The notes beneath the pieces are model-generated. The model was not told the origin of the DNA, ran no database searches, and saw only the letters and a list, made by a program, of their open reading frames with translations. A stretch of 55,962 nucleotides of DNA from Promethearchaeota archaeon. Lineage in GTDB: Archaea; Asgardarchaeota; Lokiarchaeia; Sigyniarchaeales; SOKP01. Positions 123-53,252 of the stretch are shown here, piece by piece. A program made the position numbers and the translations under genes. Where the stretch lies: positions 1-55,962 of the forward strand of contig JBHLMQ010000015.1 of the NCBI GenBank assembly GCA_048938005.1, written 5' to 3'. Every line of letters begins with the position of its first letter. Within the stretch, counting starts at the first letter, position 1.

Positions 123-503
123 CTAAGCAGTGTGAGCATGATTAGAGTCACTTACACAGTTAGCATTCCCCATTATTCTTAATTTTCCCTGAATAAAGAG
201 TCTTATATTTTCATCAATGCTTGTATTCAAACCTTGATATAAATTTATCTTAACCTGTTGAAAACCCATAAATGGACGCATTCCAATACCGGTTAGAATC
301 ATTTCAGTAATATTTCGTTGTTTCATATTTATAACAGGTTCCATACATCCTGAATGACCATTATTAGCTAGTGCAAAGACTTTTCTATATTTACCATCAT
401 CAAAAATTTCGATTCCGATATAATAATTACAATGTCCAAAATGCGGTGATATGTTATCTGATAGTTCAGTGCCATTAGAGGGTATGCCAATAATTCTTTT
501 CAT
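123..503 (-). CDS. NifB/NifX (FeMo-cofactor biosynthesis-like) family protein
   Basis: Motifs ISPHFGHC, GHSGC and GIGMRP are typical of the NifX/NifB-like family; ATG at 503 preferred over GTG at 512. Confidence 0.8.
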   Translation of the reverse strand: MKRIIGIPSNGTELSDNISPHFGHCNYYIGIEIFDDGKYRKVFALANNGHSGCMEPVINMKQRNITEMILTGIGMRPFMGFQQVKINLYQGLNTSIDENIRLFIQGKLRIMGNANCVSDSNHAHTA

Positions 504-737
504 AGTTCTCACACTTTTTGCTTATATTATTCTTTTAATATTTTAAAAAATTAAATCTTTATTGTGAATAAATATTCTTAAAACTTAAATTTAATTATTA
601 TTCTTTTTGGGAGAAAATAGGACATTTATGTTAAGGTAATTTTGAATGATTATTCATAATATTTAAATTGTTATATGAATATTTATTACATAATCTGCTA
701 ATAATGAATAATTATTCAGATTTAATACTTAATTGAG

Positions 738-12280: not shown

Positions 12281-12419
12281 AGTTCAAATCAAACCTTCTA
12301 CATATATTAAGTAACTTTTAAGATCTTTCAAATAATAATATTTGAATTTCATTTTATAATAAGGTTTATTTTCAGAATTAATATAAAATTTCAATAAGAG
12401 ATAATAATAAAATTAAAAA

Positions 12420-14645
12420 TTAGTATAATTCTACTTTAGTAAACTTTCCTATATCTTTACTAAGTGTTTTTAAAATTTTATTTTCTAACTCTTCTGGAAT
12501 ATGCCTGAAAGAAAAAGCTTCTAACTCTGGTAACAAATTCTGGATTGTTAATCTAGTAAGATATTCTAGATGATCACATAAAGCGAATAATTGAAAATGA
12601 GATGAATTTTCTATTAAAACGGCACCTCTACTAACAGTAAAATAATTAACTTGTTGTTGTATCATGTTTTTCCTTATATTATTCCAGAGATCATGAAATC
12701 CTAAAAGATAAGTAACATCTTTTAAGGATCCACTCTTGTCATTTAGTAAAATTAATTCCCATGCAGAATTTTGTGTTCCTATAAAAATTGTATAAACAAC
12801 ACTTTTCTTTTTTGATGTTTTCTCTTCGGTTTTCCTAAATGTTAGTCTATTAAACATTCTTCGTAAAATTGAACCTGCAGATTTTTCAATAATACCGGTA
12901 TTTAGCTGTTCAAGATTTTCATTTATTTCTTTTTCTAAATTTGATAGGTTATATTCCTGTGCTGTTTTTAATGCTTCTTCAAAATATATTTTTGCCTGTC
13001 TTGGTAGTTTACTTTCTGCTGCTAATAGTCCTTTAAGCAAAACCAGTCTACAGAGATCCAAATAACTTTGGTTTTCGATAGCAATGGTTTTTGCTAAATC
13101 TAAATGGTTATATGCATGATTTAAGTGTTCAAGGTTTCCAGACTCTAGAAAATATCTAAAATATCCTTCAGCAAGCCTAATTTCAATATCACTGGCATCT
13201 TCAACAGATTGATTCTTAAACATAATTTCTCGTTCTTCCTTCAAATGATCAATCAATTTTGACCAGTCACTTTGCAATTCTCCTTCTATAGCTTGCAAAT
13301 CATGCATAAAAATATTTCCTACTGGTGATTCTAAGAAATCCGAATCAGTAGGCAAGTTATTTTTTACAAATTCTAATAATTCAAGAGAATCTGTTTTACC
13401 AGCAATTCTTTTCAGAGTAGAAAGAAGATCAAGTTTATAATAAGTAGGTAAATTTTCTTCAGAAAGAACTTTTTGACATAATTCTTTTGATTCACCATAA
13501 CGTTCAGAGATAAAAAGTGTTTCAGCAATAATGCTCAATAATGAGCTTCTTATAAAAAATTCTTCTTGGACAATTGGTAATTCTAATATAGCTTGTTGTC
13601 GCTTCAGAGCTTGATCGTAAAGTCCTTGTTTAGATTCTATGACAGACATATTCGAAGAAACGACTGCATGAGTTCTTTCATCGCCTATTTCTTCACTAAC
13701 TTTTAATACAATTTCGAAAATTTTTAGTGCCTTTTCTAAATCTCCACTAGATTGGTTAACAGCAGCATAAAAATTACCTACCACACTTACTATTTCTCGA
13801 TTTTCTAATAATTGCCCAAAATTAAAAACTGGTTCTATTATGTCAATAGCTTCATTAATCCTTCCAAGAAAATATAATCTAAATCCATAATATCCTTGCA
13901 GAAGCATTAATCCTGTTTTCATTTCAATAGAAGTTAGATTGCCCCATTCTTTTTGACAATTATGATATAATTCTTCAAGAAGATCATAGGCACTTAAACG
14001 AAGGAAAACTTCAGATTTAGCAATTGCTTGTTCTAATTGAATAATCAGTGGAGCAGACTTGAAATCAACTCTCTTAGCTATTTGAATTAATTCGGGTGAG
14101 GGTCCAAACCTTGCTTGTAAACGTAGATACAATAGATAACTCCAAGAAGTAGGTTTATATTTATATTTTATAAGTTCTTTACCTTTTCCAATTATAAAAC
14201 CCCATTTGACGGATAGGAATGTGATGAGTTGATTGTTTGGATGTTTATGCCATAAATCTGTTAAGCTTTCATACCATTCTTTTGGGGTTTTATTGAATGG
14301 CTCTGCTAATGAGACCAGAATATTTTTCTCCTCATCACTAGCTAAAGACAAATATAACCGAAGTTCTAATGGTATATGACGCTGAAGGTTATTCCATTGA
14401 TCAGGAGCTCCTTCTATACTTGGTTTTTCTTCATAATAATCTTTGTGAGCTCGATATTCTCCTTGTTCATCTATGACAACAACATTAACATGTATAGAAT
14501 TTGCTGTAGCATGATGTCCTACTCGTATTGAAAATAATTTTCCAATCATGGGATTTCCTGACTCAGATTTATTGATATATGTCTTTGGATTATTAAGATC
14601 AAAATTGATCTTTTCATTACAAATTTTGCAATTAATCTCAGTCAT
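12420..14645 (-). CDS. TPR/helical-repeat protein with N-terminal Zn-ribbon-like domain
   Basis: CKIC..H..H N-terminus; TPR-like repeats (GRINEAIDII, GDLEKALKIF, GLYDQALKRQ, AKIYFEEAL). Confidence 0.7.
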   Translation of the reverse strand: MTEINCKICNEKINFDLNNPKTYINKSESGNPMIGKLFSIRVGHHATANSIHVNVVVIDEQGEYRAHKDYYEEKPSIEGAPDQWNNLQRHIPLELRLYLSLASDEEKNILVSLAEPFNKTPKEWYESLTDLWHKHPNNQLITFLSVKWGFIIGKGKELIKYKYKPTSWSYLLYLRLQARFGPSPELIQIAKRVDFKSAPLIIQLEQAIAKSEVFLRLSAYDLLEELYHNCQKEWGNLTSIEMKTGLMLLQGYYGFRLYFLGRINEAIDIIEPVFNFGQLLENREIVSVVGNFYAAVNQSSGDLEKALKIFEIVLKVSEEIGDERTHAVVSSNMSVIESKQGLYDQALKRQQAILELPIVQEEFFIRSSLLSIIAETLFISERYGESKELCQKVLSEENLPTYYKLDLLSTLKRIAGKTDSLELLEFVKNNLPTDSDFLESPVGNIFMHDLQAIEGELQSDWSKLIDHLKEEREIMFKNQSVEDASDIEIRLAEGYFRYFLESGNLEHLNHAYNHLDLAKTIAIENQSYLDLCRLVLLKGLLAAESKLPRQAKIYFEEALKTAQEYNLSNLEKEINENLEQLNTGIIEKSAGSILRRMFNRLTFRKTEEKTSKKKSVVYTIFIGTQNSAWELILLNDKSGSLKDVTYLLGFHDLWNNIRKNMIQQQVNYFTVSRGAVLIENSSHFQLFALCDHLEYLTRLTIQNLLPELEAFSFRHIPEELENKILKTLSKDIGKFTKVELY

Positions 14646-28848: not shown

Positions 28849-29283
28849 TTAATGTTTAAAAGGACCTAGTTTCTTAATTTGGTTAGTAAATTCTGTTATA
28901 ACTTCAGCAAACCTTTTTCCTTCAGATGCACTAACCCATTCTAACCGAACACGTTTTGGATCTATGCCTAATTGTTTGATTAAAATGTTATGTAAACGTT
29001 CAAATCGTTCTTGTGTATATTCGTTTCCAGAAATATAATGGCAATCTCCTATATGGCATCCACTTACAAGGACTCCATCAGCACCATTCTTTAGAGCTTT
29101 TAAAACAAAAGAAGGGTCTACTCTTCCAGAACACATTACCCTTATTACTCTAATATTTGGAGGATATTGGAATCGTGAAACCCCTGCTAGATCTGCTCCA
29201 GCATAGCTACACCAATTACAACAAAATACGAGAATATTTGGTTCATATCCTTCTTGTTTTGCTTTCTTTTTTGACTTTGACAT
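28849..29283 (-). CDS. mvhD: MvhD-type [2Fe-2S] subunit (Cys form), copy 1
   Basis: [36 protein letters not shown]. Confidence 0.92.
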
Positions 29284-38103: not shown

Positions 38104-38535
38104 TTAGATTGGTCTTAAGGGACCTAGTTCTTTAATTTGATTTGTGAATTCTGTAATGACTTCAGCAAATCGTTTTCCTTCAGATGCACTTACCCACTCA
38201 AGTCTAAATCTTTTTTCAAGATTAAACATTCTTAAAATTTCTCGGAAATTTTCAAATCTATCTCTTGCAAACTCATTTCCCTTCAAGTAATGACAGTCGC
38301 CAATATGACATCCAGTTACAATGACTCCATCAATTCCATTTTTAAATGCCTCTAAAATAAAAGCGGGATCTACCCTTCCAGAACACATTACTCTGACAAT
38401 TCTAATAGTAGAGGGGTATTGAAATCGTGAGACTCCGGCTAAATCAGCTCCAGCATAGCTACACCAATTACAGCAAAAACACAAAATATTTGGGTGAAAT
38501 TCCTTTTTACTTACTTTCTTTTTTGACTTAGACAT
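38104..38535 (-). CDS. mvhD: MvhD-type [2Fe-2S] subunit (Cys form), copy 2
   Basis: [29 protein letters not shown]. Confidence 0.92.
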   Translation of the reverse strand: MSKSKKKVSKKEFHPNILCFCCNWCSYAGADLAGVSRFQYPSTIRIVRVMCSGRVDPAFILEAFKNGIDGVIVTGCHIGDCHYLKGNEFARDRFENFREILRMFNLEKRFRLEWVSASEGKRFAEVITEFTNQIKELGPLRPI

Positions 38536-41595: not shown

Positions 41596-42368
41596 TATTT
41601 CCCCTCCTTAATTGATATAAATGTTGGAATCTCTTCATGTATTTCATCAAGATCAACCAAACCTCTCTGTCTTAGAGTGACAATATGATTTAATACTTCA
41701 TTTGGCTTAACTTGTATCTCGTTCGATATTTCTGGTACTGATTTGCTCGAATCTTTAATTTTTTGTAATATTTTGTAACGAATAAATTCATTATATAAAC
41801 TATCATCAAGAATTTCTTCAAATTCTTCTTTTGGTATTATTTCATTATATACATTACCTTCTGTAGTAATTAGCCTTTCTCTACTAACTAATGTTCTAAT
41901 TCTAGAATCAGCCAATACAGATTTAATTACTTCAAAATTCTCTAATAATTCTTTTTTCAATTTTTTGTTTTTTATAGGTGAAGGACCTAAATTAGTAATA
42001 AATTCATTAAAATCATTTACTAGTTGAGCAAACCTATTACCCTCAGAAGCCGAGACCCAATCCAAACGAAAACGTTCTGAAAATCCAACATAATTTAATA
42101 ATTTTCTAAGCATGTTCATTTTCATCTCTGCTTCATAATTACCGGTCATATAATGACAATCTCCTGGGTGACAACCTAAAACAAGGACCCCATCAACTTT
42201 TTTTAAGAAAGCTTCAGCTATAAAAATGGGATCAACTCTCCCACTGCACATTACTCTTATAATTCTAATATTAGGAGAATATTGAATTCTACTTACACCC
42301 GCAAGATCAGCTCCAGCATAAGAACACCAATTACATAAAAATCCTAAAATTTTTGGTTTAAATGCCAT
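41595..42368 (-). CDS. mvhD: MvhD fused to a C-terminal helical/winged-helix domain
   Basis: ATG 42368 after SD GGAGGAG; [19 protein letters not shown]; about 120-aa extension ending in wHTH-like SVPEIS..I......VLNHIVTLRQRGLV. Confidence 0.88.
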   Translation of the reverse strand: MAFKPKILGFLCNWCSYAGADLAGVSRIQYSPNIRIIRVMCSGRVDPIFIAEAFLKKVDGVLVLGCHPGDCHYMTGNYEAEMKMNMLRKLLNYVGFSERFRLDWVSASEGNRFAQLVNDFNEFITNLGPSPIKNKKLKKELLENFEVIKSVLADSRIRTLVSRERLITTEGNVYNEIIPKEEFEEILDDSLYNEFIRYKILQKIKDSSKSVPEISNEIQVKPNEVLNHIVTLRQRGLVDLDEIHEEIPTFISIKEGK

Positions 42369-46707: not shown

Positions 46708-47820
46708 TTATTGTAAATTTTTCATGAATTCTTCTTTTCGCTTTATTTTTGATTCAGAAAACTTAATTAGTAGCTCTTTCATATCGGTTTTTGCTTTAGC
46801 GTCAAGTTCTAATGATTTAATAATATTTTTGTCTAATACTTCATGAAATAGTTTTTTACCTTTATCAGTTCGAGGTATTACAGTAGTATATTTATCTTGA
46901 GAACCAAGTCCTCCAAATGAAATATCTGAATATATATTTGTAAAGTCAATACAAGAATGACAAGCAGGTCGTATATAATCAACTAGCTGATCGAAAGGAA
47001 TACGGATAATTTTCTCTTTAGAATTTTTATCTTCTACTTTTAAAATTAGAGCCTCCTTAATATTTATTTTTTTAATATTTTCAAACTTGATTTTAAAATT
47101 TTTTTCAAATTTTTCTTTTTTAGATTTATCGAATAAGAAATTATGATAACAAAATAATCCTAAACAAATTTCGATATATTCTGAGGGTGTGACACCCAAA
47201 TTTTGCATACACCTTATTGTGTAGATTTGACAAGGTGTGCCCACTATAGCTAATTTTTTAAATTTATAATGATTCAATTTTACAATAGAGCGAGTATAAG
47301 TACTAAATCTTTGTATCTCGTCTAATTGTGAAGTTATTTCTAGTTTTGTCCCGGAAGCTTTAATTAATTCATCCTTTTTGCCTGCAAACATGGATTCTCT
47401 AGAAAATGGAGCATCAAATTTAGATACTATTGCTCCATCAATTACTTTTTTTTCTAATAAGTAATTTATTAAAGTATTTACAACACCTCCATCAGTTCCA
47501 TATTTTAAGAATTCAGGGTCATTGGTTTGACAGGAATAGATATCTTCTAATTTGCCAAGAGGCTTGGAAGCAAAATCTGTAAATTGATAAGTTTTATTGA
47601 GATCCTCATCTAAAATATGTGTTTGAGGGCAAATACAATAACATATACCACATTCAAGGCATGCATCCTTATTTATATACTCCGGAGGTGAAAATGGCTC
47701 TTTAAAGCCGATTACATTTTCAAATGTTGCTGAACAGAAAGAAGTACATCCCCCACATTCCTGGCAGATGCCTTTTTCATGAACTTCCTTAATTAAATCT
47801 TGAAATGTTTTTGAACTCAT
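46708..47820 (-). CDS. FrhB/FdhB-family (F420-interacting) subunit with N-terminal ferredoxin
   Basis: ATG 47820 (MSSKTF); CQECGGC, CLECGICYCICP, DGGVV, VGTPCQ, GLFC, CHSC.DF...SDISFG. Confidence 0.85.
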   Translation of the reverse strand: MSSKTFQDLIKEVHEKGICQECGGCTSFCSATFENVIGFKEPFSPPEYINKDACLECGICYCICPQTHILDEDLNKTYQFTDFASKPLGKLEDIYSCQTNDPEFLKYGTDGGVVNTLINYLLEKKVIDGAIVSKFDAPFSRESMFAGKKDELIKASGTKLEITSQLDEIQRFSTYTRSIVKLNHYKFKKLAIVGTPCQIYTIRCMQNLGVTPSEYIEICLGLFCYHNFLFDKSKKEKFEKNFKIKFENIKKINIKEALILKVEDKNSKEKIIRIPFDQLVDYIRPACHSCIDFTNIYSDISFGGLGSQDKYTTVIPRTDKGKKLFHEVLDKNIIKSLELDAKAKTDMKELLIKFSESKIKRKEEFMKNLQ

Positions 47821-47830
47821 AATATTAATT

Positions 47831-49333
47831 TTATTTTTCTTTCTTTTCCAATTTAATTGGTTCACAATTTTTTCTTTTTGTCCCAGCAATCCTTTCTAAT
47901 AAGGGTTGTCCTGGTTTAACATCTTTTAAACTTTTAGATTCTATTAATCCTGCTTTAATGGCTTCTTTATAGATTTTCTCACCTTTTTTATTTCGTGTAA
48001 TTACTGAGGACCAACCACTAGGTGAACCAATTGATCCTACAGAAATATCCGCAAAATCTGCAGTCAAATCCTCGCAGTAATGACAATTGTGCCGAGCATA
48101 AGATTTCACATCTTTTAATGGTACTTTTAAATCTCCGCCCGAATCTAAATAGATGATAAATTTACCACCACTTATATCCATTTTTGTTATTTTAGTATAA
48201 TCTTTATCAAATTGTTCCTTAATTAAGTTAAGTATACCCTCATAGGGAAAAGATTCCATGCAAAAAAGCCCAATTTTATATTTAATATTTTTGAAAAAAG
48301 GTAAGCCACTCGGAAACAAATTTCCTTTCTCTAAAGCATTCATCATACAAGGAACTCCTACAATTGCTATATTTTCATATTGTTTTGTATCATCTATTAT
48401 AGAGAGTGTTGAGGCGTTAGCATATTTAGTTCCTCCAGTCTTATATAAATCTTTAACATCCTCTATTATAACTGGCTCAGGTTTCCATAATTCCTTTGAA
48501 TGCTGTACTGCTACGATTGCGTCAACTAGTTTATTTTTGAGTAAATATTCAAGGATCGAGGTTACAATCCCTCCATCTTGTCTTACTTTTTTAATCTCAT
48601 CCTTAGTGGTTGTGGCAGAATATGCATTAATATAACCATTAATCTTTTCTGAAAATTTCAATGCTTTATCGAGTTTATTAATACTTTTGCCCACTTGTTC
48701 AATTGAAAATGATCTGGGACAAACAGAATAACACAAACCGCATTTTATGCAATTATCATCATCTATATCTAAAGTATCTGCTGTCGCTTTAATAGCATTT
48801 ACGGGACAAATTGATGAGCACCAACCACATTGACAGCATACTTCAGATTCAAACACTAAAGAGACTGGTTCAAAAAAGTGTTCAATGAAATCCTCAGGAA
48901 TATCTTTAAATTGATACCTATAGAAATATTCTTTTTCTTCGACTTCTTTTTCTTCTCCTTTAATTTTTTTAATTACTTTTTTAGTTTTTATTTCAATATA
49001 TTCTTCAACATATCCTTGTTCTTTCAGATAGATTATATCACGAATTACGTTTTCTTGAGGAAAATCGTTTACAATTTTTGCAATTTCCTCTAAAAATAAC
49101 GGTTCATTACCCTTTAATTTCTCTAACACTAATTTGCGCTCTGTTTCAGCATCAATCATGGCATCTAATATTTCATAGAATTCTTCTTCAGAATATTTTC
49201 CAGTATTCAAAATTTCCTCTTTTGCTTCGTAAAAAGCTCGAATTTGAAAATTCTCGACTGCTTTATAGGTAGCATCCATTAAATTTTTTGGCGATATTCC
49301 ATTGAAATTGATATTTTTAGCAATTTGAACCAT
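47831..49333 (-). CDS. FrhB/FdhB-family subunit with N-terminal helical/winged-helix domain and ferredoxin
   Basis: CCQCGWCSSICP, CIKCGLCYSVCP, QDGGIVT, GTKY, GVPCM, GLFCME, CHYC.D..ADISVGSIG. Confidence 0.88.
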   Translation of the reverse strand: MVQIAKNINFNGISPKNLMDATYKAVENFQIRAFYEAKEEILNTGKYSEEEFYEILDAMIDAETERKLVLEKLKGNEPLFLEEIAKIVNDFPQENVIRDIIYLKEQGYVEEYIEIKTKKVIKKIKGEEKEVEEKEYFYRYQFKDIPEDFIEHFFEPVSLVFESEVCCQCGWCSSICPVNAIKATADTLDIDDDNCIKCGLCYSVCPRSFSIEQVGKSINKLDKALKFSEKINGYINAYSATTTKDEIKKVRQDGGIVTSILEYLLKNKLVDAIVAVQHSKELWKPEPVIIEDVKDLYKTGGTKYANASTLSIIDDTKQYENIAIVGVPCMMNALEKGNLFPSGLPFFKNIKYKIGLFCMESFPYEGILNLIKEQFDKDYTKITKMDISGGKFIIYLDSGGDLKVPLKDVKSYARHNCHYCEDLTADFADISVGSIGSPSGWSSVITRNKKGEKIYKEAIKAGLIESKSLKDVKPGQPLLERIAGTKRKNCEPIKLEKKEK

Positions 49334-49415
49334 AATTCCATCCTTCAGGAATATATTTTTTTGAAAAATTTAACTTTTTAATTGAATACTATTTAAAAAC
49401 CCCTTCCTTTGCTAG

Positions 49416-49461
49416 GTTAGTCTTCTTATAACCAGAATTTTTTTATAAGAATCATTCTAAC
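49416..49461 (-). ncRNA. Eukaryote-like SECIS element (cis-acting Sec insertion hairpin)
   Basis: Minus strand reads GUUAG-A-AUGA-UUCUUAUAA-AAAAAUUCUGG-UUAUAAGAA-GA-CUAAC: 5-bp lower stem, AUGA/GA kink-turn core, perfect 9-bp upper stem, A-rich apical loop; sits at the 3' end of UGA-containing genes. Confidence 0.85.
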
Positions 49462-49913
49462 GGGGTAGTTATAATTTCTGTTGTTTCAACTTTTGATTCT
49501 TTATCTACTAAATTAATTGGACTAGGTCCAGCTTTTTTTAGTTTTTCATAAGCGTCCTCAACAGATTCGACAAATTTCCCAGCATCTCCTCCACTTAACC
49601 AATACATATTAATTCTTTGATTTCCGAAACCTCTGGATTCTAAGATTCTATTTGCTAATTCAACATGTCTTTCAGCAGTAAAATTGCCATTTTTAAATTG
49701 ACATTCATTAGGGCGTCAACCAACAATCATAACACCATCAGCTCCCGCGCGAATGCTATATAAGATGTGCTTAACATCAATTCTGCCAGTACATCTTACT
49801 TTGACAATTTTGACAGCAGGTGTATATTTCAATCGAGAAACTCCTGCTAAATCAGCCGCGCTATATCCTCACTTTAAACAAGCGAATACAACCATTTTAT
49901 AAGTATTTTCCAT
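49452..49913 (-). CDS. vhuD: Selenoprotein MvhD/VhuD (153 aa, Sec15 and Sec66); absent from the ORF track
   Basis: ATG 49913: MENTYKMVVFACLK-U-GYSAADLAG..RCTGR..GADGVMIVG-U-RPNEC..WLSGGD..GPSP..TPLE*. TGA at 49869-49871 and 49716-49718 align with Cys of CNWC and GCH in paralogs; SD GGAGGT upstream. Confidence 0.92.
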
Positions 49914-49919
49914 GTCTGT

Positions 49920-51863
49920 CTAACCACCTCCTAAAAGACCATCAATTTCAGCAAATAGTTGATGATCTCGATAATACCTTATATCAATAGCCTGAGTTGG
50001 ACAGCATGTGGCACAAATACCGCATCCATCACAGTTTATCTCATCAATAAACGCTCCAATATCCTCTTCAATCCTAATGGCATTTTTTGGGCATTCTTTT
50101 TCACACCTTCTGCATGAAATACAAAATTCGCTGTCAACTTCAGCTGTTATCAGTTCTAAATCGATTTCTCCGGGAGCTGTTAATTCAGCTACTTTACTAG
50201 CGGCAGCTCTAGCTTGAGAAACTGAATAAGAAATATTTTTTGGACCCTGAGCAAACCCAGCTATAAAAATCCCTTTTGTCTTTGTTTCTTGCGGCATTAA
50301 ACCAAAGTGTGATTCTGTAAGGAAACCATATGTATTAGTATCAAGATTTAATACTTGAGCAATCTGTTGAGTACCTTTTGAAGGGAGTGCTGCTGTGGAT
50401 AAAACTACTAAATCAGCATCAATTTTTACAATCTTATCTGTAAGAGATGAATACACCCGAACTTTCACGTTTTTTGTTTCAGGATCTTCAGAGATTTCAC
50501 CTACTTTTCCTCGAATCATTTTAATCCCTGCTTCTTTAGCTCGTTCATAGTACTCTTCAAATCCTTTTTCAGGAGTTCTTATGTCAATATAACAAATTGT
50601 AATGTTTGCATCAGGAAATTCTTCTAAAAGTAATCGTCCATTTTTAAGAGCAAGCATGCAGCAAACACCACTACAATAAGTACGCTCAGTTTCTCGACTT
50701 CCTACGCATTGTATAAATACAATTTCTTTGGGTTCCTTGTTATCCGAAATTCTATGCACATGTCCCTCAAGAGGTCCATTTGGGGCTAATATACGTTCTA
50801 ATTGAGGTTGAGTTATGACATTTTCGAACTCTCCATATCCATATTCTCCAAATGGTTCATAAATGTCCCAACCAGTTGCTATAATGATCGTTCCAACATT
50901 AATATTAACTTCTGTTGGTACTTGACTAAAGTCAATAGCATCTAATTCACAAGCATCTACACAGGAGAAGCACTCTACACAAGCATCTCTGTCGATATCA
51001 TAAAGAAACGGTACTGCTTGACCAAATGGAATGTCTATTGCCTTTCGTGCTCCTAAATATTCGTCGAAATAATTAGTTGTGTAAACTGGACAAACTTCAG
51101 CACATGCTCCACATCCATTGCATTCATCTGTTGTATAACGTGGTTTCTTTTCAATCGTTACATTGTAATTACCAACATAACCTTCTATATTCTTTACCTC
51201 GCAAAATGTTAATAATTCAATATTTTCATTTCTGTTAACTTCAAGCATTTTAGGTCCGCAAATTCATATAGCACAATCGTCTGTAGGAAATGTTCTGTCC
51301 AATTGAGCCATTCTTCCACCGATGGTTGTTTTATGGTCAACTAAGTAGACTTTAACGCCTTGATTTGCAAGATCCAGAGCTGCATTCATTCCACCAATCC
51401 CTCCTCCAATGACCAATGTAGCCTTTGTAACCGGAACGGTTCTAATAGGGACTGGCTCTAAGAGTTTGGCTCTGTCAATACCACTTTTAACCAATATTTT
51501 TGCTTTTTCTGTAGCTTCTTCTTTGCTATCTGTACACCAAGAACAATGTTCACGAACATTAACCATTTGAAAATAATATGGGTTTAAATCTGTTTTTGCT
51601 ATAGTACCTCGGTAAATTACTTCATGTGTCCGTGGGGTTCAAGCCGATGCTACAATTCTGTTTAAATTCTTTTCATTGATATCCTCAATTATTTCATTTT
51701 GCGCATTATCAGTTCAAAGAAATGAGTTTTTCTTTGAAATTATGATTTCGTCTCCAAGGTTTTTTACATAGTCTACTAATTCATCGCAATCTACTTTACT
51801 TCTAATATTAATACCTCATTGACAAGCATAGTATCCAATCCGATGATTTTCTTTATCACTCAT
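49920..51863 (-). CDS. hdrA: Selenoprotein HdrA (647 aa, Sec16, Sec50, Sec75, Sec200); split in the ORF track
   Basis: ATG 51863 after SD GAGGTGG; single frame to TAG 49920-49922 with TGA at 51816-18 (CQ-U-GINI), 51714-16 (SFL-U-T), 51639-41 (SA-U-TPRTHE) and 51264-66 (DCAI-U-ICGPK), each matching Cys in paralogs. Confidence 0.92.
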
Positions 51864-52262
51864 CTATTTTTACACACCACCTCGCAATTATACAAAATTG
51901 TAAATTTAACTGTGAATTTCTTAGATTTTTATTGGATGTTTTTTAAGTTCCAATATTGATCTTTATTTTAATATCGAACTTAAATATTTTTTTTTAAAAA
52001 TTATTCATTTTTAATATTTTTAATTCTTTCTGTTAATCGATATAACAAATATTTTATTAGGCGGTCACAACTTCAAGATATTTTTGACCAGACCGAAGAT
52101 TATTGATTATTTGATTTTAGAAATCGTTAAAGCTTAAAGAGATTTGTGATTAATTCTCAACATTCTTTGAAGAATTATTTTTAAAAAAGTAAATATAAAT
52201 TAAAAAAAGGGATGGTAAACAAAAAATTTTCTAATATTTTTATTGAGTTTGATAAGACTAGG

Positions 52263-53252
52263 TTAATTTTTATTTAAATATTCTTTATAATAATGAGATT
52301 TATTTAAAAGGTATTTTCGAGCAATTGATCTAAACATTATTGTAAAAAATCGTGAAATAGCTACTTTTTTTCTAACTGCATTAAAGTAGTCATCAATGGT
52401 ATACCTTTGATAATTTAAAAGAGCTTGACTTTTATCAGTAGTCATAAATCCACAATGAAAGCCTTTTGTACTAAATGCTTCAGCAGGTAGAACATCATAT
52501 CCAATCCCAAAAATATTTAACATTTCATTAAGATATTCTCGATATGAGATCCGACATCTTTCTCCACCAGCAATATGCATTACTTCCCCCCATATTTCTT
52601 TATTTTCCACTGCATTAGTAAGAGCGAGACCAACATCTTTTGTATCACAGATTTCTATACAAGTATCAAGAGGCATTTCAAACATTAATGGATCCATTTG
52701 TAATTTATTCAAAGAGACGATATACGTTAAGCGAAAGATTGCCCAATCCAAGCTTGATTTTTTAATTAGCTCCTCACACTTGACCTTCTGTTTAGCATAT
52801 TCATCATCCGGATTAGGATTGAGTGGATCATCAGGAGTTATTAAAGGACTTTCAAGTCGATCACCATATATTGCAACTGAAGACGTAAATATGAGTTTTG
52901 GTTTTTTAGGCTGTTTTTCCATTGCTTTAATAATATTGGCAGTTCCTCCAACATTAACGGATTCTGCATACTTTGGTTTTTTATCGGCAAGGGGAGGAAT
53001 AATCGCTCCAACATGGATAATGACATCTTTGTCAGAAACAGCTCTCTCGACATCCTTATAATAGCGTAAATCTCCCCAAAAGATTTTAATATCTTTTTTA
53101 TATTTATTGGCAATTCTTTTATTTCTTTTTGTCTTAATATCAAAAACTCTAATATTATAATTTCGCTTAATTAGTTCTTTTAGTGTACTTAATCCTACAT
53201 TCCCAAATGCTCCTGTAAGCAAAACATTCAGTTTAATCACCTTTCTTTCCAA
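52263..53252 (-). CDS. NAD-dependent epimerase/dehydratase (extended SDR)
   Basis: TGAFGNVG, FTSS, YAKQK catalytic motif; exact start uncertain (53252 or ~53240). Confidence 0.85.
   Translation of the reverse strand: MERKVIKLNVLLTGAFGNVGLSTLKELIKRNYNIRVFDIKTKRNKRIANKYKKDIKIFWGDLRYYKDVERAVSDKDVIIHVGAIIPPLADKKPKYAESVNVGGTANIIKAMEKQPKKPKLIFTSSVAIYGDRLESPLITPDDPLNPNPDDEYAKQKVKCEELIKKSSLDWAIFRLTYIVSLNKLQMDPLMFEMPLDTCIEICDTKDVGLALTNAVENKEIWGEVMHIAGGERCRISYREYLNEMLNIFGIGYDVLPAEAFSTKGFHCGFMTTDKSQALLNYQRYTIDDYFNAVRKKVAISRFFTIMFRSIARKYLLNKSHYYKEYLNKN

Follow-up and report, generated by a model that had tools for sequence, protein, structure and literature searches.

A lokiSECIS-type element whose AUGA core provides the stop codon of vhuD in a lokiarchaeal hdrA-vhuD gene pair

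How can one mRNA have UGA read as selenocysteine (Sec) six times and as a stop once, when the UGA that stops translation lies in the core of the very element thought to direct recoding? This question is raised by a 55,962-nucleotide (nt) contig of a Promethearchaeota archaeon (JBHLMQ010000015.1; 'the window' hereafter refers to this whole stretch, contig C12 of a 3.72-Mb genome in 101 contigs with 29.8% G+C), in which a Sec insertion sequence (SECIS) element of the lokiarchaeal type, or lokiSECIS, begins within the last codons of vhuD. We consider it probable that this is the single, shared lokiSECIS of a bicistronic hdrA-vhuD mRNA, that it supports Sec insertion at six distant UGAs and that the UGA of its own core serves as stop. 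The position relative to the SECIS is the only visible discriminator between the two readings of UGA. As lokiSECIS elements are a proposed link between archaeal and eukaryotic Sec decoding, the locus is of interest as a clean, well-conserved example.

Both genes are on the minus strand. The hdrA-like gene (49920..51863, stop TAG at 49922-49920) encodes a 647-residue protein, when translated with TGA as U, with Fer4 and pyridine-nucleotide-disulphide oxidoreductase Pfam domains. Its four putative Sec UGAs correspond to residues 16, 50, 75 and 200 (51818-51816, 51716-51714, 51641-51639 and 51266-51264, respectively). The vhuD gene, or mvhD (49452..49913, ATG at 49913, 153 residues, FlpD family), starts 6 nt past the hdrA stop, and its product matches the Pfam FlpD signature (PF02662, methyl-viologen-reducing hydrogenase delta subunit) with an E-value of 7.8e-42. 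It harbours two Sec UGAs, at residues 15 and 66 (49871-49869 and 49718-49716), and ends with the TGA at 49454-49452. A preliminary description of the locus, made from the sequence, had likewise counted six Sec UGAs; they are located 264 to 2,364 nt 5' of the core UGA. Four UGAs are present in 30 of the 35 complete orthologous hdrA genes, and 46 of 48 vhuD orthologs have two UGAs within their first 150 codons, the third UGA of the other two appearing to be the core UGA.

On the minus strand, positions 49461..49416 read GUUAG-A-AUGA-UUCUUAUAA-[AAAAAUUCUGG]-UUAUAAGAA-GA-CUAAC, which is letter for letter the hairpin with an A-rich loop reported in the preliminary description. The AUGA core (49452..49455) contains the in-frame UGA that terminates vhuD, as translation confirmed. 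Next comes the 5' arm of stem II (UUCUUAUAA, 49443..49451), in which an in-frame UAA is found two codons past the core UGA, and an 11-nt apical loop of the AAAAA....G form, with an A-rich start and a terminal G (AAAAAUUCUGG, 49432..49442). The 3' arm (UUAUAAGAA), together with the core GA at 49422-49421, occupies 49421..49431, as indicated by the sequence, the pattern scan and the alignment. Stem II is composed almost entirely of A-U pairs, with a single C-G pair. As modelled, the complete lokiSECIS is 72 nt long (49396..49467), comprises three helices and covers the last five sense codons of vhuD and its stop. Its helix I pairs ACCCC (49462..49466), located within Thr-Pro codons of vhuD, with GGGGU (49399..49403), and between the core GA and the latter strand RNAalifold places a mini-hairpin, III (CCU-AGCAA-AGG, 49406..49416).

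This lower part differs from that of the preliminary description, which had a 5-bp outer helix, GUUAG/CUAAC. The two inner pairs of that helix stood up (50/50 and 42/50 sequences), the third is present in 20/50, and the outer two are mostly lost (4/49 and 3/50). We rejected the idea that the 5-bp helix is conserved; it is ACCCC/GGGGU, enclosing mini-hairpin III, that is conserved in the lower part. Compared by sequence with a kink-turn, the core consists of AG/CU, a bulge AAU and G.A/A.G followed by stem II, with a C-stem of 2-3 bp.

The evidence for the element comes from its relatives. We found 54 related loci in metagenome-assembled genomes of Promethearchaeota (Lokiarchaeota) and used the 49 with a readable vhuD 3' end and element. 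In L059, L060 and L063 the contig stops before the vhuD 3' end; also left out were L064, which is bacterial with 33% identity, and L062, a 35%-identity paralog with a TAA stop and no element. The window element and the 49 orthologs were aligned with plain MAFFT (alignment A1, 50 sequences) and used to build a covariance model, R1. A second, model-fitted alignment, A4, has 58 sequences, including eight paralogous elements of the same genome, and is biased towards the model. The pattern scan found AUGA in 49/49 orthologs, a 9-bp stem in 45/49 and a 10-bp stem in the other four, and an 11-nt loop in 45/49, the 9 + 11 geometry being present in 44/49. The dinucleotide 3' of the stem is GA in 45/49 and AA in 4/49. 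In A1, the core TGA and its leading A are invariant in 50/50 sequences, as is the terminal G of the loop.

Covariation was observed in all three helices. Stem II is 95.1% paired across the 50 sequences, with compensatory changes in six of its nine pairs in A1, and none of 500 shuffles reached its covariation score; shifting the 3' partners by 1-3 columns, as a control, decreased pairing to 43-58%. Helix I is 84.8% paired in A1 and 92.4% in A4, with two-sided changes at all five pairs in the latter. In this helix, an ACC-to-ACU change that is silent in the Thr codon goes together with a G-to-A change on the opposite strand. Mini-hairpin III is 96% paired, with one covarying pair in A1 and two in A4. 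Searched with R1, the window element scores 92.4 bits (E = 1.7e-20 in the 3.72-Mb genome) and is the sole match in the window at E <= 1. The window also contains three Cys-type FlpD/vhuD paralogs without in-frame TGA (28858-29235, 38116-38487 and 41922-42353, minus strand), none of which has an R1 match at that threshold. A loose IUPAC pattern without pairing gave two matches for 0.48 expected and was discarded as too weak to be evidence. With its relatives the element is beyond chance, which it is not from a single sequence.

The stop/core overlap is just as stable in this orthogroup. In 47 of the 49 orthologs, as in the window, vhuD ends at the UGA of AUGA, which makes 48 of 50 elements. In L045, a 1-nt deletion creates an in-frame UAG 5 nt upstream of the core, and in L058 a TAA is found 17 nt upstream of it; both loci have kept the SECIS. 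The hdrA stop, about 470 nt upstream, presents a clear contrast, as it is TAA in 35 and TAG in 13 of the 48 cases, and the last 100 hdrA codons of the orthologs contain no UGA except for one at a Cys position in L024. The L024 hdrA gene thereby has a fifth UGA, 34 codons before its stop and about 570 nt from the SECIS. It is part of a ferredoxin-type C..C..C motif (..CDGUGIC..) in which the other orthologs have Cys, and it is apparently a lineage-specific Cys-to-Sec change.

The element and the overlap are real and already in print. The lokiSECIS was defined by AUGA, a 9-bp stem, an 11-nt loop with As first and an ultraconserved final G, and GA or AA (Mariotti et al. 2016, PMC4989117). The element described here shares AUGA, the 9-bp stem, the AAAAA..G 11-nt loop and GA with the lokiSECIS of HdrA-VhuD, in agreement with the preliminary assignment to a eukaryote-like SECIS of the Lokiarchaeota type: each published feature of sequence and structure is present. 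Its arrangement is also shared, with a single element after vhuD, a short spacer, a non-UGA hdrA stop and overlap with the end of the coding sequence (CDS), and the UGAs at vhuD codons 15 and 66 and hdrA codon 200 are at positions given in the accessible text of PMC4989117. Nothing essential differs. According to the same text, each HdrA-VhuD pair has one element, which serves as many as six UGAs spread across about 2 kb, and many Loki selenoprotein genes stop with UGA but those of HdrA never do, for which a minimal distance was proposed. Its Discussion argues that a UGA too close to the element cannot be recoded and states that the core UGA is the stop of VhuU.1. In the accessible portion of Huang et al. 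2024 (PMC11227280), such elements are named type I eSECIS-like, after eukaryotic SECIS, and the core UGA is said to be 'often' the stop in Lokiarchaeia. The novelty implied by the preliminary description is accordingly not sustained. The main texts of these two papers, supplements apart, do not name vhuD among the genes stopped by the core UGA, nor do they describe the lower helix and 3' mini-hairpin.

To situate the overlap, we examined other lokiSECIS elements. In the genome to which the window belongs, we considered ten elements, namely eight R1 matches (E <= 0.0012) and two pattern-scan candidates, on contigs C21 and C9; the pattern scan missed the elements of C49, C80 and C60. Further pattern-scan candidates on C20, C32 and C85 were dropped as doubtful, the last having no model match and abutting a tRNA-like sequence. 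All ten elements are directly downstream of open reading frames (ORFs) with an in-frame UGA. The stop is the core UGA itself in two of them, the vhuD element of the window and a vhuU-type element on C9. It is a UAG 5 nt before the core UGA for two other vhuD elements, on C49 and C18, and the remaining six elements have stops 12, 15, 18, 24, 24 and 90 nt before it. There are 15 vhuD-like matches in this genome, four of which have two TGAs.

With 150 candidates scored per genome, at least 65 R1 matches (E <= 0.001) were obtained in nine of 13 genomes, all nine from one genus; the four genomes from other families yielded none at this threshold. We fetched and classified 50 non-orthologous matches from eight congeners. 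Nine of them remain unclassified (L078, L081, L089, L101 with masked N, L106 at a contig end, L113, L115, L118 and L120), and the CDSs of three among these nine possibly cross the core in another frame. Most of the 50 follow ORFs with an in-frame UGA; several have no listed UGA or are unclear. The stop is the core UGA in six of the 50, comprising four vhuU-type elements, the hdrA-like L116 and the small ORF L080. Eleven are vhuD paralogs with a UAG 5 nt before the core, and most others have TAA or TAG 11-40 nt upstream of it. All five vhuU-type elements, from this genome and its congeners, have the overlap. Only in two orthogroups, hdrA-vhuD and vhuU, is the overlap fixed; outside them it occurs sporadically, with proximity between stop and element being common among the lokiSECIS elements examined.

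L116 (G002:C2:317793-318660) illustrates how an overlap may arise. Its relatives L090, L096, L102 and L110, as well as that on contig C78 of the window's genome, have a TAA 15 nt before the core; in L116 this TAA is lost, and five extra codons lead to the core UGA. We regard it as an apparent independent origin of the overlap, in which the core UGA would behave as a 'default backstop'.

These elements also indicate at which distances UGA is read in either way. The nearest apparent Sec UGAs are 77 nt (L075) and 81 nt (L080) from the core, with one unclear candidate at 49 nt (L113). Judged from ORFs, UGAs apparently act as stops at 0, 10 (L120) and 42 nt (L104 and L119). Across the genus, the switch would thus roughly be bracketed by stops at up to 42 nt and Sec from 77 nt on, distances that fit a minimal-distance rule. 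In eukaryotic selenoprotein mRNAs, the minimal spacing between UGA and SECIS is reportedly roughly 51-111 nt. In both cases a near UGA is a stop and a distant one is Sec, but our bracket is archaeal and comes from ORF structure only. The eukaryotic rule that a minimal spacing is needed is credited to Martin et al. 1996 in the accessible text of PMC4989117. The locus is a good natural substrate for an archaeal minimal-distance rule, although the idea is not new. What our analyses add are counts of the overlap (48/50 in the orthogroup, 5/5 in vhuU-type elements, rare elsewhere), the distance bracket, a corrected lower structure and the lead to small membrane selenoproteins presented below.

The data directly show the sequence, the reading frame, the conservation, the covariation and how the hdrA stop differs. 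From these data we infer Sec insertion at the distant UGAs, unfolding of the SECIS by the terminating ribosome and neutrality of the overlap, as follows. The element starts within the last vhuD codons, and the AUGA of its kink-turn-like core provides the stop UGA. A ribosome covers roughly a dozen nt 3' of its A site. With the core UGA in that site, helix I, the core and the 5' arm of stem II should already be melted, and it is reasonable to consider, as did the preliminary description, that a ribosome at this codon must unfold the SECIS; Mariotti et al. 2016 had already argued in this way in their Discussion. Most likely, no SECIS would then be left in cis for the core UGA, and termination would follow by a positional, minimal-distance rule. 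The overlap itself would most simply be a frozen by-product of tight packing. Because the UGA is invariant for RNA reasons, it stays as the stop once it is in frame, and only a nonsense mutation or an indel upstream would pre-empt it, as occurred twice in the 49 orthologs.

Several points weigh against this interpretation. The 48 overlaps out of 50 come from one orthogroup with 65-86% protein identity and amount essentially to one inherited state. The overlap in all five vhuU-type elements could equally reflect selection. At gathering thresholds, Rfam gives no match over the whole window, and at E <= 10 over 47500-52500 it gives no SECIS family but only weak, unrelated matches. The accessible texts of PMC4989117 and PMC11227280 report that SECISearch3 likewise does not match such elements. 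Folded as a single sequence with RNAfold, the element reaches -10 kcal/mol (z = -1.25), which is matched by 23 of 200 shuffles; its minimum-free-energy fold joins GUUAG to CUAGC rather than to CUAAC. Finally, according to the accessible part of Peiter et al. 2025 (PMC11881835), a lokiarchaeal SECIS was non-functional in Methanococcus maripaludis, and the function of these elements is still a bioinformatic assignment.

Could the overlap be a selected regulatory device? Terminating ribosomes would melt the SECIS, evict its factors and throttle Sec decoding upstream, as a negative feedback or a form of pacing; the preliminary description had proposed such a built-in feedback. The great stability of the overlap in two hydrogenase-linked orthogroups (48/50 for hdrA-vhuD and 5/5 for vhuU-type) agrees with this possibility, and, as most other lokiSECIS elements in the genus are within about 40 nt of a stop, proximity to termination may matter. 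However, the stops of L045 and L058 are shifted by 5 and 17 nt upstream with their SECIS intact, and vhuD paralogs with a UAG 5 nt before the core are found eleven times in congeners and twice in the window's own genome. A ribosome halted at that UAG melts the core as well, so that the UGA overlap would add nothing specific to feedback, and since other lokiSECIS stops are mostly 0-40 nt from the core, unfolding at termination would be generic in the genus rather than special to the overlap. In addition, an invariant in-frame UGA is expected to remain the stop even if the overlap is not under selection. We found no support for the feedback and hold it to be unlikely.

An extended version of the same idea is that both the overlap and the start of the lokiSECIS inside the last codons are functional, with terminating ribosomes resetting the SECIS and its binder and thereby pacing Sec decoding. 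The lower three-way junction, made of helix I and the mini-hairpin with its GNRA-like loop, might then be a docking site replacing SBP2. According to the accessible text of PMC11227280, Asgard genomes have no reported SBP2 gene, and the window's genome has two ORFs of the L7Ae family (PF01248), with open frames of 125 and 143 residues. We give this version little credence, no more than the simple feedback.

We prefer the positional reading, with the core UGA as a plain stop, even more clearly over the idea that this codon is occasionally translated, either as Sec or through near-cognate read-through. VhuD would then gain the U-F-L tail already deduced in the preliminary description and confirmed by translation with TGA as U, and the UAA in the stem would be the true stop. 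In 46 of the 50 sequences, an in-frame stop does follow 2-3 codons after the core UGA, 43 of these being UAA at +2 codons. Nevertheless, both other frames of this AT-rich stretch are also stop-rich, frame +2 stopping after five codons in 40/50. The tail codons vary jointly with the 3' arm of the stem, which argues for a constraint on RNA, not protein. Past the core UGA, four orthologs stay open for 21-26 codons, and L045 and L058 end before the core. Decoding of the core UGA thus seems very improbable. The notion of a selected backup UAA in the stem was rejected for its part as inseparable from background, given the stop-rich other frames and the four orthologs without the UAA.

The least probable of these alternatives, that the hairpin is not a Sec signal but a transcription terminator, a stabiliser or an L7Ae-binding kink-turn, finds some encouragement in the helix I 3' strand running into a T-tract (49399-49395) kept in many orthologs, in the kink-turn-like core and in the two L7Ae-family proteins of the genome, but hardly agrees with the UGA-containing ORFs that precede ten of ten elements in this genome and most of the 50 congener matches, with the lack of R1 matches at the three Cys-type vhuD paralogs of the window or with the absence of the T-tract from several paralogous elements.

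If the element is a lokiSECIS of the hdrA-vhuD mRNA, as we think, how does it compare with SECIS elements of other lineages? With the eukaryotic type I SECIS (Rfam SECIS_1) it shares an AUGA...GA core able to form tandem sheared G.A pairs, apical unpaired As and long-range action from the mRNA 3' end. In contrast, it has a shorter upper stem (9 bp) and no Rfam match, it overlaps a stop codon instead of being located in a long 3' untranslated region, and it serves two cistrons. The euryarchaeal SECIS of Methanococcales and Methanopyrus has a GAA_A internal loop, with an AUGA...GAC/AAC version for vhuD (PMC4989117). The 3' site near the stop, the vhuD context and the AUGA of that version are shared, whereas the GAA/A asymmetric loop with G-C clamps is absent here and the stem is almost all A-U. 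The genome also encodes the means to make Sec, with a tRNA-Sec identified by Aragorn and SepSecS (E = 2.6e-114). SepSecS is encoded at C97:100492-101649 (minus strand) and the single tRNA-Sec is at c[101872,101964]; judged by coordinates alone, the two genes may be adjacent.

Downstream of the element, an FrhB/FdhB-like gene without UGA (47831..49333, minus strand, 500 residues) begins 62 nt beyond its modelled end. A T-tract and TATA-like block (TTTTTAAATAG, 49389..49399, minus strand) is part of a downstream block kept in many orthologs and might mark where the mRNA ends, where the next gene has its promoter or both. The larger block directly 3' of the SECIS (GGGGTTTTTAAATAGTATTCAAT, 49385-49403, minus strand) is near-identical across many orthologs. 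It probably combines the oligo-T end of the hdrA-vhuD transcript with the TATA box and B recognition element of the frhB-like gene. If so, the SECIS is the 3'-terminal structure of the mRNA. A search for RNA sequencing runs that cover 48900-50400 listed none. At the other end of the gene pair, Rfam gives a sub-threshold match to the enterobacterial RybB (51665-51735, plus strand; 30.6 bits for a gathering score of 40, E = 0.0028) on the strand opposite the 5' part of hdrA; it is almost certainly due to chance in AT-rich archaeal sequence.

Many strong R1 matches lie just 3' of small ORFs, among which we delineated one family from its seed, L098:451-696 (plus strand). Its relatives are L124-L135, L076, L079 and L083, and the window's genome has a member on contig C80, just upstream of 501-570 (minus strand). 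These proteins of 70-88 residues have a basic N-terminus, one hydrophobic, predicted membrane helix and, directly after it, a GG[GCTD]GU motif with an invariant U. Of the 31 genomes of the genus, 13 have homologs, with 29-99% identity. In 13/13 loci, there is exactly one in-frame TGA, and a full-length R1 match is found on the same strand 12-16 nt past the TAA or TAG (E from 2e-14 to 2e-6). Four members of this family and five small ORFs of related types have no Pfam match above the cut-off. In the accessible portions of the sources, the family is absent both from the 2024 list of seven Asgard selenoprotein families and from a 2026 review, and a literature search that included PMC11227280 and PMC13188914 found nothing on it. 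It looks like an undescribed family of small membrane selenoproteins, a candidate found SECIS-first.

Short versions of this family, ending in ...GTGUGG* or ...GTGTUPG*, are encoded on contig C73 of the window's genome, where roughly 90 nt separate the end of the ORF from the downstream SECIS at 12354-12424, and at L075:228-383 (minus strand). Their putative Sec, 2-3 residues from the C-terminus and 77-99 nt from the core, accounts for the nearest apparent Sec UGAs. Additional types of small ORFs precede lokiSECIS elements at L074, L084, L094, L097, L108, L082 and L115, and also at L080, L081, L089 and L113. The CDSs of L081, L089 and L113 may pass through the SECIS core in a different frame and terminate within the loop, unless a frameshift or an assembly error is involved. 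One type is clustered in tandem on a single contig, and its products combine two hydrophobic segments with ..AUG[RH].. or ..VTUVPP..; another has a helix followed by a poly-Asp/Gly run and then C..U. Five R1 matches fall within G007:C17:9.6-15 kb.

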